DNA of 64,000 bases from Euglena gracilis (taxonomy: Eukaryota). This document shows positions 9,001 through 12,000 of this stretch, piece by piece (within the stretch, counting starts at the first letter, position 1; the number at the start of each line of letters is the position of its first letter). The position numbers and the translations under genes were made by a program. Under the pieces are notes generated by a model, which saw only the letters and a program-made list of their open reading frames with translations, had not been told where the DNA came from and searched no databases. The stretch covers positions 10,435,521 to 10,499,520 of the forward strand of contig CP154954.1 in assembly GCA_039621445.1 (NCBI GenBank). The letters are read 5' to 3'.

Positions 9001-12000
9001 TCGGATTTCCCACAATGCATTAAATTTAGTTTGTGTCTTTGGATCAGTTTATGCCTTTGCCTTTGCCTTTGGATCCACGTTGTGTCAACCCCCCAGTAAA
9101 TGTGTGGCAAAAAGAAGGATTTTTTTTGTTCATGTGTGATACAAACAATATTTCCATGAGATTAAATTTGATTTTTAGGATTAGGTGTGTTTGCATGATT
9201 AATTAATATGATTAATAATAACGATTTCTAAATATTAAAAGTGCATGTCGGTCCTGCTGGACAAACCTGTTGGCGAGGGTTGTGCCGCAGTCACCTTATG
9301 GCAGAACCTTTAAGTGTCTTGCTGGCCACCACCATTCCTGTGCAGATGAAGCACGGTCATCCGTTGATCATTTGCATGGTGTATTGCTCCCGGCAGGCAT
9401 GGGACCTCAAGGGGGTGCTGCGGCCGCTGCTAGACGCGGCGCAGCCAATGGTCACGCAGCTGTGGAATGGCCCGGCGTGACTGGCCTGTGACTGGTTTTG
9501 AGGCCCTTTACAGGTGAGGCCCCCAACTGGGCGTGACTGGGTTTGGAATTGGGGATGACCACAGGGGCTTGGCGGTGGTGGCGGGGGTGCAGGCCCTCTT
9601 CCCCTTGCAGCCCGTTGAGGCTGGGCGGGAGAAGAAGCGCTACTGGTTCGCCGCAAACGGCGTCGACATCAGCCTCGAGTCCTACGCAAAGGTGCGAAGC
9701 CAGAAGCGTCAGCGCGTTTTTGACTGCACATGGTAATTTCACCCTGCCATCCGACGACAATATTATTTCTCTCTCATTCAATTGACATTTTCGCTCGAAT
9801 TGGCCCCGATAGCCAAAACGTTGGTACCTGTACCCAAATCGGGCCAACAGTTTGGGTACATCAGTTTGGGCACATTGGGGCCAATATTATGTGCACCGGG
9901 TGGCAACATTTCTGTAGGTGTATGGGTGTCTGTCCCATTTGGTCCGCCGAACAAATGCTCGGCGGCTGAATTCTTTCATGATTGAAGGCGCGGGAACACC
10001 ACACAGCCCACTCCCTCCGGTGATGCACCGGTCGTCCCATTGTGACTGACTGCTATCCCCGGGCAGGGAGCAGCCGGCAAGGCGGTCGACCTCCCGGGCC
10101 TCGATTTGGGGCTGCCGGACGCGAAGCGGTTGAAGGGCAATTATTTCGACCCTTCCGGTGTGTTCTGATGCCGGCCGAAGTCTCTCCGCCTCGGGTTTTT
10201 TTTTGTGCTTCAGGCATTAGGTGCCACCTGCCTGTGCATCATTGTTTGATGCCATTGTCATCATGATTTTGTGCAGCGTTGGTTTTTTGTTGCTGCGGCT
10301 GCTGCTTCTGCTGCTGCTGTTTCTTTTTGGTGATGGCGTTGTTGTTCTGTTGTAATTGTCGTCGTCGTCGTCGGTGTGCTTATTGTTGTATAATTATGCT
10401 CTCATAATATTATATTATTGTGTTATTTGGGGAGGGTATAGCCACCGCTAAGCAGTTTCTTGCCAATCGCATTACAGAGCACTGTGAATACGACAATGGC
10501 ACAACACAGAAAGGATTAAAAGAGTTCGGGGTTGGAAAATGAATCCCTGAAAGGTGTAAGATGTTCACCATCCTCAGACCTCACTTTCATCCTCCATCCC
10601 GTTGTTTGGTGCCAGTGTCGGACGTTGATGCCAACCGTGCCCTTGCAAAGCCAACTGCTTTTTGGTGAGGCGCAACGGACACGGGGGTTTGCCAATTGCC
10701 CAGCACCCATGAAATGACTGGGCGTGACTGGGGCATGGCCGGAGTGTGACTGGGGTGTGACTGGGGCGTGGCTGGGGCGTGACTGGGGCGTGACTGGGGT
10801 GACTGTGGCGTGACTGGGGCGTGACCGGGGCGTGACCGGGGCGTGATTGGGTCTGGGACTCTGGATGACCACAGGGGTTGGCCAGTCGCCCCGGCGTGCC
10901 GGCCCTCCCCGCAGGCAGCGGCGACCTGTCCCCCTGGCAGGCCGCCACCCCCGGGATGGAGAAGGTGCCGGTGGCCCAGGGGTTTGCTTTCCGAAGTCGC
11001 TCCTCCCACTGGGCTGAAGGGTGGGTAGGGGTGGACTCCCCCAGAGGCCAATCTGGACAGCCCAGGGTGGGACGTGGGGCTGGGTGAGCTCTCTTTGAGG
11101 CGAAGTTGGAACCAAGAAGAAACATTTAAAAGAGGGTCATGAAATCATAAAGCTACAAAACAAAATTCTAAAGTCTCTTGCATTATTCATGACTTAGAAT
11201 ATAAATGGGCCATACATACTCAAAGAGAAAAAAATAAAAAAAACGTATAATAATAATATAAATAATAATAAATAACAGTAATAAATAAATGTTAATGTAT
11301 ACACAAATAAAACAAATGAATGAATGAACGAATGAATGGATGAATGAATGGATGGGTGGATGGATGGATTGATGGATGGATGGATGGATGAATGAAAGAT
11401 GAATAAGTGAATAATCACAGTGATAAAAACCTCTGCCAGGGACAGCATCCTGGCGGCTCGCGTCTCCCACGTGGGCACCGTCAACCCAGTGAAGGATTTC
11501 CAGGATATGTTCAACCGGTGTGCGGTGTCAGCCTGCCTCATCTGAATGCGGAAGAAAGGGGAAGGGTTCAATCAGGGGGGCCATGTTTTGAGGTGAAGAG
11601 CGTCAGGGGGGTACAGATGTGTAAAGGGCTTCTTCTTCGAGAGAGAGGTTTAACTTCTTTAATTTCGAAGTGCAAAGTTGTTTGTGTGTCGTCCGCGGTG
11701 GCAATTTTCAGTGACTTTTTTTTAATTGAATTGAGTTGGGCATTTATTGATTGTGCTTGGTGCATTTGGTATTGCGCATGATATTGAAGATCATGGCCAG
11801 CTCCTGAACCCTCGACCCCCCCCCCTCTTATCATTTTGTGTTAGTTTTCTAGTGGTGTGGCCAGCGCATGGTACAGGGGGGGGGGTAATGGGTGGCAGCA
11901 GGCTGCAGGGCTGAAGATCGCTACAGGGCGTAATTCATTGGACGCCCAATTCACCACTTTTTCCACAATTCGATGAAAAGATTTAACAAACACATGAGTG

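Follow-up and report, generated by a model that had tools for sequence, protein, structure and literature searches.

Nonconventional introns of euglenids have been known since the 1990s, and in Euglena agilis they account for about 70% of all introns. In this study, we describe family B, a short repeat with three copies (A, B and C) in a 64,000-nucleotide (nt) stretch of Euglena gracilis DNA (GenBank assembly GCA_039621445.1, contig CP154954.1, positions 10,435,521 to 10,499,520 of the forward strand). This whole stretch is called the window, and all positions below are counted from its first letter. Copy A is an intron of a Ku80 gene, copy B is carried within a conventional intron of that gene, and copy C interrupts an exon of a minus-strand gene. 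Family B is probably a short DNA element resembling a MITE (miniature inverted-repeat transposable element), which becomes a nonconventional intron when it is inserted in an exon.

The signal of nonconventional introns is a CAG at +4 to +6 paired with a CTG at -8 to -6, that is, 3 nt from the 5' border and 5 nt from the 3' border of the intron (PMC12501133, PMC11282704, PMC4770533). Positions +5,+6/-8,-7 were always paired in the 55 introns of Milanowski et al. 2016 (PMC4770533). Nomura et al. 2025 gave the code 5'-N3-CDG ... CH'G-N5-6 | R, which 61.2% of nonconventional introns follow, and reported that pairing of the terminal motifs is needed (PMC12501133). MITE-like insertions were proposed as the source of these introns by Milanowski et al. 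2014, when no euglenid transposable elements had been identified according to the available text of that paper (PMC3935182). A recently gained, strain-specific nonconventional intron of E. agilis gapC carries 8-nt direct repeats (Milanowski et al. 2016, PMC4770533), and a 2024 review reads CAG/CTG as the ends of inverted repeats and likens the repeats at the junctions to duplications (PMC11282704). In the accessible part of a 2024 intron survey of E. gracilis the words "family" and "MITE" do not occur (PMC11170887), and the accessible part of a genome-scale study of 2025 calls the origins unclear and MITE-like elements only suspected (PMC12501133). Our literature search, outside which supplements and subscription journals lay, found no sequence family of Euglena nonconventional introns and met the MITE origin only as a hypothesis.

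Introns made by mobile elements have been described in other lineages. The introners of Micromonas pusilla and Aureococcus are MITE-like, take one splice site from the element and the other from a 3-nt duplication, have GT-AG ends (Huff et al. 2016, PMC11282704) and form many near-identical introns in unrelated genes (PMC11282704). In Amoebophrya, the inverted repeats of repeated non-canonical introns measure 8-20 nt and form a hairpin, the direct repeats measure 3-5 nt, and the cut positions vary (Farhat et al. 2021, PMC7789003). In Fritillaria borealis, MITE-derived introns with AG-AC or AG-AT ends are removed by a modified U2 spliceosome (Henriet et al. 2019, PMC11282704).

Family B and its intron in the Ku80 gene

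To positions 7880-11300 we mapped the reads of three raw RNA runs and the contigs of one more run, all labelled as the same species. A non-canonical joint, 9448>9576, skips 127 nt and is carried by 8, 3 and 2 reads of the three runs and by a complementary DNA (cDNA) contig. The other joints are of the GT..AG type: 7982>9397 (1414 nt skipped; 3 reads and the contig), 9689>10065 (375 nt; 33 reads and the contig) and 10156>10914 with the cut at +1 (757 nt; 17, 21 and 10 reads, 48 in the three runs, and the contig). A single 2293-nt contig of run X15 holds all four joints and thereby joins five exons, and it has no letter different from the window in the two exons flanking copy A. Read depth in the two bins over copy A comes from their exon parts; the element itself is uncovered in all three RNA runs.

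The 127-nt joint can slide from 0 to +4 over a shared TGGT, which allows the intron to start anywhere at 9449-9453. Its possible ends are TG..GG, GG..GT, GT..TG, TC..GG and CA..GT, and never GT/GC..AG. Thus, intron 9 of Ku80 (9450-9576, plus strand, 127 nt) is a euglenid nonconventional intron and not a spliceosomal GT-AG intron. With the published spacers it consists of copy A, 3 nt from the flanking 8-mer on the left and 5 nt from the one on the right. The left 8-mer, CCAATGGT (9445-9452, plus strand), and its partner GCGGTGGT at 9572-9579 are identical at 5/8 positions including the last four, and this 4-nt identity equals the length of the slide. The upstream exon, as bounded by the RNA joints, is 9397-9448, and removal of the 127 nt joins the frame as AAQP-M-VAGVQ. 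The preliminary description, made from the letters of the window before any RNA was consulted, had proposed this in-frame intron and named cDNA not spliced at 9449/9577 as the result that would speak against it; the cDNA contig and 13 reads do join there. A GC..AG intron within the element, frame-correct in both copy A (9456-9564, 109 nt) and copy C (42348-42189, 160 nt), was also considered and is refuted by the 127-nt RNA joint. In the span 7910-10147, 14 places are listed at which RNA reads disagree with the window, and in run X24 this is often the majority of the reads. These differences are strain or allelic variation and are not read as editing.

Copy B (10700-10881, plus strand) is an intronic passenger in the same RNA and not an intron of its own. 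It lies within conventional intron 11 (10158-10914, plus strand, GT..AG), whose joint of 48 reads encloses it, as the preliminary description had it. Its flanking 8-mers are CCAATTGC (10692-10699) and CCAGTCGC (10882-10889), identical at 6/8 positions.

In all three copies a variable (GGCGTGACTGG)n core with an 11-nt unit, GGCGTGACTGG(G), is framed by a unique 5' end and a unique 3' end. Copy A (9453-9571, plus strand, CACG...CTTG) is 119 nt long, has 2-3 core units and is the most diverged. Copy B is 182 nt long and has about 12 units at 10715-10851. Copy C (42182-42351, minus strand, CAAG...CATG) is 170 nt long, has about 11 units at 42212-42330 and looks the youngest. The copies are thus small (119-182 nt), and they are non-coding, with stops in all three frames. 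The 5' end reads (C/A)AGCACCYATGAAATGAC in copies B and C and is more diverged in copy A, and the unique 3' end, TCTGGGAYTCTGGATGACCAYAGG..TGG, is found in all three. The 5' ends agree at 28/31 (B-C), 28/35 (A-C) and 30/41 (A-B) positions, and the 3' ends at 34/36 (B-C) and 39/49 (A-C). By blastn, copies B and C are 89.4% identical over 132 nt, intron A matches copy B at 84% over 45 nt, and intron A matches both ends of copy C (80% over 51 nt and 80% over 46 nt). In the window, which has 50.5% G+C and is rich in microsatellites, the core 12-mer with at most one mismatch occurs 21 times, always within A, B or C (0.30 expected; 0/100 shuffles reach 21). The 3' 13-mer has three exact matches, one in each copy; at up to two mismatches four are found against 3.17 expected, a count that is not significant by itself. 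The 5' 17-mer is exact in copies B and C and misses copy A even at up to three mismatches. Three end-to-end homologous copies had been claimed at these places, with likeness confined to the low-complexity core named as the outcome that would undo the claim, and it is the non-repetitive ends that are conserved.

Beyond the borders of the element the similarity is lost. Aligned flanks do not stand out from a background of G+C-rich window segments (fractions 0.15-0.35), except on the 3' side of copies A and B (0.02). There, 9584-9598 and 10893-10907 are alike at 13 of 15 nt (GGGGTGCAGGCCCTC and GGCGTGCCGGCCCTC) at a similar distance from the element; this stretch is coding exon beside copy A and a C-rich tract before the acceptor beside copy B, and the likeness may be due to chance. 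The three loci are non-homologous and lie in two genes and on both strands. Copy B is nearer in sequence to copy C, in another gene on the other strand and 31 kb away, than to copy A at a distance of 1.1 kb, which argues against copy B being a local duplicate of copy A. As first described, the orientation relative to transcription is the same in 3/3 copies, a number without statistical weight, the gene strand at copy C being taken from reading frames and AG|..|GT exon borders only. Motif counts and blastn found no fourth copy within the 64 kb. At least two other contig pieces of run X15 contain family-B-like segments in different surroundings, which hints at further copies elsewhere. Rfam at its gathering thresholds gave no match in the window, and metagenome scans with the 3'-end motif and with the core found no stretch in either case.

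Excision geometry and marks of insertion

When the published spacers of 3 and 5 nt are laid around the CACG..CTTG of copy A, the interval 9450-9576 (127 nt) results, which is within the range allowed by the RNA. Laid around the CAAG..CATG of copy C, they give 42354-42177 (178 nt). In both copies G is the first intron base and also the first base of the next exon, so that both the spacers and the purine of the published code are present. No allowed slide of copy A fits the strict code, and the terminal motif is a CA-N-G/C-N-TG variant of it. The cut geometry of 3 + 5 nt at copies A and C is derived from the literature and appears compatible with the data.

The ends pair in register +i/-(i+2) at 10/13 positions in copy A and 11/13 in copy C. 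Positions +13/-15 are G-C in copy A and A-T in copy C, a compensatory change, and are a broken A.C in copy B. The two intron ends pair in both the minimum free energy and the centroid folds of copies A and C. Since the fold energies do not differ significantly from those of shuffled sequences, the total stability is no evidence, and we use only the specific pairing of the ends.

Together the two spacers make 3 + 5 = 8 nt, as long as the duplication, and excision would thus take out the element with exactly one of its duplicated flanks. The message would then read as it did before insertion.

Copy C carries the clearest marks of insertion. Its inverted ends, CAAGCACCTATG and the reverse complement CATGCACCTATG, agree at 11/12 positions (11/13 over the longer span); those of copies A and B agree at 10/13 and 8/13. 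Among 9109 control positions, one has an inverted repeat like that of copy C. The left target-site duplication, GTGGCGGG (42352-42359, minus strand), is identical at 8/8 positions to the right copy at 42174-42181, and 18 of the 9109 control positions have an 8/8 direct repeat at the same spacing; these 18 are presumably microsatellites. The identity of the flanking 8-mers is clear at copy C (8/8) and decayed at copies B (6/8) and A (5/8), and all three values were the same on recomputation as first given. The perfect duplication and the 11/12 inverted repeat support a recent insertion of copy C.

The exon interrupted by copy C is at 42063-42455 on the minus strand, with borders ..ttgcAG| and |GTgtcc. 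Taking out the 178 nt leaves one open frame of 71 codons (..LLQRVWRAYTAWRDAPEEE..), and the other two frames stop. The interval has no GT/GC..AG boundary at any slide over the repeat and never ends in AG. The G+C content at third codon positions is 0.63 and 0.74 in the two halves of the exon. No relative or family of this gene was found by a word-indexed protein search with the downstream exon, HMMER with the upstream exon and Pfam on the open reading frames (ORFs). A nonconventional intron is thus predicted at 42177-42354 on the minus strand; its 178 nt would comprise copy C and, from the duplication, 3 + 5 nt. Of what had been said about it, the element, its flanks and, from the 3 + 5 geometry, the coordinates hold, and its status as an intron stays a prediction.

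The Ku80 host and other repeats of the window

The part of the Ku80 gene in the window (2-14302, plus strand) has 17 exon pieces and 16 introns and hosts copies A and B. Its C-terminal exon has one relative among 5.8 billion proteins, GGOE01001433 (P0001, eukprot), which is 75% identical and contains the Ku core (PF02735) and the Ku80-specific C-terminal domain (PF08785). The accession series of GGOE01001433 was used for Euglena longa transcripts (bioRxiv 10.1101/573709). By tblastn, this protein matches the window in 17 collinear exon pieces over 2-14302 with 61-96% identity. Over the junction of copy A it is collinear, of the same length and without a gap (AAQP-AMAKVR-ALFP).

In protein-guided alignment, GT..AG is among the best-scoring junctions in 7/16 introns (1, 4, 7, 8, 10, 11 and 13); in intron 5, GT..AG is one score point lower on our reading of the sequence. 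GT..AG is lacking in 8/16 introns (2, 3, 6, 9, 12, 14, 15 and 16), and three of these eight (3, 12 and 14) fit the strict code 5'-N3-CDG...CH'G-N5|R. The E. longa relative and the fit of 3/8 introns to the code point to a euglenid host, a Euglena near to E. longa, that uses nonconventional introns. The conventional introns of Ku80 end in C-rich tracts (e.g. GCCCTCCCCGCAG), like the cytidine-rich tracts reported for introns of E. gracilis (PMC11170887). In intron 2 (682-1652) the best protein-guided junction has CAG at +1, with CTG lying 8 nt before the intron end, a 0 + 8 spacing. Moved by 3 nt, the junction would agree with the 3 + 5 code and, on our reading, lose about one alignment score point. 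The ends of the element in intron 2, CAGGCTT...AAGCCTG, form an inverted repeat of 7 nt without a mismatch.

The window holds a second MITE-like family, with poly-C/poly-G interiors and with inverted ends near CAGGGCTGTACGGGA. Its inverted pairs lie at 12776-12964, 27066-27151, 53368-53572, 17986-18184 and 22674-23132, and such ends gave 14 matches at up to three mismatches against a rough expectation of about 1.6 under uniform composition. The element at 12776-12964 (CAG...CTG) is the code-conforming nonconventional intron 14 of Ku80 (12773-12969, plus strand) minus 3 + 5 nt, the junction being taken from the E. longa protein. Intron 14 speaks for a tie between the tips of the inverted repeats and the CAG/CTG signal; with poorly conserved flanking 8-mers, the family gives no support for the length of the duplication.

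The pair 22674-23132 adjoins a possible exon of an SPFH/Band-7-like gene with exon-like ORFs at 15623-22717 on the plus strand. Pfam gives Band_7 at 15623-15847 with E = 0.0032, below the curated cut-off, and the other pieces resemble erlin-type proteins by eye only. An interspersed repeat of 200-250 nt with 77-83% identity occurs at 13662-13921, 22285-22486 and 43956-44199 (minus strand). One of its copies is in the middle of Ku80 intron 16, so that here the repeat is nested in the intron and does not itself make up the intron. Another pair, 8512-8708 and 48472-48700, is 80-82% identical. Its copy in Ku80 intron 8 draws RNA reads and short contigs (bins 8455-8684), which indicates that some member of that family is transcribed.

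Origin of family B and comparison with known systems

The explanation that we favour is as follows. Family B would be a non-coding MITE-like transposon of 119-182 bp with imperfect inverted repeats of 12-13 nt (CAAGCACCTATG...CATAGGTGCATG), an array of 2 to about 12 GGCGTGACTGG(G) units and an 8-bp target-site duplication. It would have been moved by a transposase that makes 8-bp staggered cuts. In the pre-mRNA the inverted ends may pair, the outermost C-A (+4,+5) and U-G (-7,-6) lying at the site of the CAG/CTG signal. The cuts of nonconventional excision would then fall 3 nt upstream of the 5' motif and, at the other end, 5 nt downstream of the 3' one, removing the element with one duplication and bringing back the original frame. 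An insertion in an exon could in this way be harmless at once and persist as a new intron, and one in an existing intron, such as copy B, would ride along. The preliminary description had proposed a mobile element that inserts anywhere and forms introns in exons. Its core is supported, for copies A and B by RNA and for copy C by the insertion marks; we infer the splicing of copy C and the mobility of the family. The 8-bp duplication, the short inverted ends with CA.G, the small size and the lack of coding capacity recall hAT-type MITEs, a likeness which serves as a lead only.

Several points weigh against this explanation. All five cut positions agree with the RNA, with which the 3 + 5 geometry is thus compatible rather than demonstrated by it, and the RNA alone would also agree with transcripts from a gene copy without the element. 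Positions +6/-8 are mismatched in copy A (C.U) and in copy C (A.A); despite this, copy A is fully spliced in the reads seen. The fold energy is no better than that of shuffles (z = -0.25 for copy A and 0.06 for copy C). The duplications of copies A (5/8) and B (6/8) are weak singly, with a chance probability that we estimate at a few per cent, or about 10-20% when offsets are allowed. The flanking 8-mers of the second family are only 3-6/8 identical. No transposase or autonomous partner of family B was noted, and no dedicated search was made for one. The gene at copy C is without a known relative, its splicing is predicted from sequence, and the family is seen as three copies only.

A trivial source of the likeness would be chance: an 11-nt tandem repeat makes up the core, simple repeats abound in the window, and G+C-rich minisatellites at three unrelated loci could look related. 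This is next to impossible and is refuted by the end and flank comparisons, since the unique ends are conserved, the similarity stops at the borders apart from the stretch 3' of copies A and B, and the core 12-mer is found nowhere else in the window. Very improbable, too, is that the 127 nt are not spliced at all, the transcripts having been made from DNA without the insertion: another allele, a paralogue or a gene copy rearranged somatically. The single-nucleotide differences of the RNA reads from the window do show that other alleles or strains are in the data, and a joint flanked by a short direct repeat also resembles an empty site. However, the X15 contig that has the joint matches the window letter for letter in the flanking exons, and the element is uncovered by reads in every RNA run. 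Moreover, removal of such introns at the RNA level is documented in euglenids (PMC6221363, PMC11282704), and other non-GT-AG introns of Ku80 fit the published RNA code.

The remaining alternatives accept the intron and differ in how it arrived. Family B might spread through RNA: the circular intron would be reverse-spliced into another transcript, or a reverse transcript of it would be inserted, and every copy would then be sense relative to a transcribed region. All three copies are indeed sense in transcribed DNA, circular excision products are mentioned in reviews (PMC11282704), and copy B is inside an intron of a pre-mRNA. We regard this route as unlikely, since reverse splicing makes no target duplication, yet copy C has a perfect one of 8 bp, and the 3 + 5 nt that would travel with the intron differ between the copies (GGT/GCGGT, GGG/GTGGC and TGC/CCAGT). 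Three of three in one orientation is also without weight, and with a nearly symmetric terminal motif the orientation need not matter. Milanowski et al. 2016 suggested, for the 8-nt repeats at the new E. agilis intron, the repair of a staggered double-strand break (PMC4770533). In this case filler DNA would come from an existing intron, the direct repeats would be fill-in and no transposase would be involved, in line with there being no known transposase for family B. Such an origin is rather improbable, because the copies share the same element termini with inverted repeats, and because a repeat length of 8 in copy C, weaker in copies A and B and equal to that of the E. agilis case, fits an enzyme with a fixed stagger better.

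Taking family B as a MITE-like element that forms introns, a wider reading is possible and is offered tentatively. The Euglena splicing code N3-CAG...CTG-N5|R may itself be a transposon fossil, composed of inverted-repeat tips and an 8-bp duplication, and most euglenid nonconventional introns may be introners. If so, the machinery of excision arose, or was taken over, for deleting exactly the element and one duplication from RNA. Family B and the CAGGGCTGTACGGGA family would then be introners that can still be recognised, and family B may still be active.

Family B resembles the nonconventional introns of euglenids in its Euglena host, in the absence of GT/GC-AG borders and in a slidable junction that arises from short direct repeats. 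The ends pair, a purine is present at +1 and as the first base of the next exon, C-A/U-G stands at +4,+5/-7,-6, the spacers are 3 and 5 nt, and such introns are mixed with conventional ones in one gene. It differs from typical members in that CA-N-G/C-N-TG replaces CDG/CH'G, with the mismatch at +6/-8, and from nonconventional introns as published in being a sequence family at unrelated places, one copy of which is not an intron of its own. In the window, a single family provides an RNA-verified nonconventional intron, a predicted second one in an unrelated gene with a perfect 8-bp duplication, and a passenger of a conventional intron. The copy A data support the old idea that nonconventional introns began as jumping DNA. 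The hypothesis of a MITE origin becomes countable genome-wide and testable by knock-in, and a simple reason is offered for the asymmetry of 3 and 5 nt in the code, namely that the spacers sum to one target-site duplication.

This adds a non-spliceosomal case to the list of transposon-made introns. With the introners of Micromonas and Aureococcus, family B shares the inverted ends, the target-site duplication and the conversion of an exon insertion into a precisely removable intron; unlike them, it has no canonical sites, an 8-bp duplication and a nonconventional mode of removal. The introners of Amoebophrya likewise have a hairpin that joins the exon borders, direct repeats that overlap the junctions and no internal transposase. 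However, Amoebophrya is an alveolate, its repeats are of 3-5 nt, its cuts are variable, and no sequence is shared with family B. As in F. borealis, the insertion of a transposon is tolerated through the removal of non-canonical introns, but in F. borealis, as far as the review's available text goes, this is achieved by a modified U2 spliceosome without an end-pairing code (PMC11282704).

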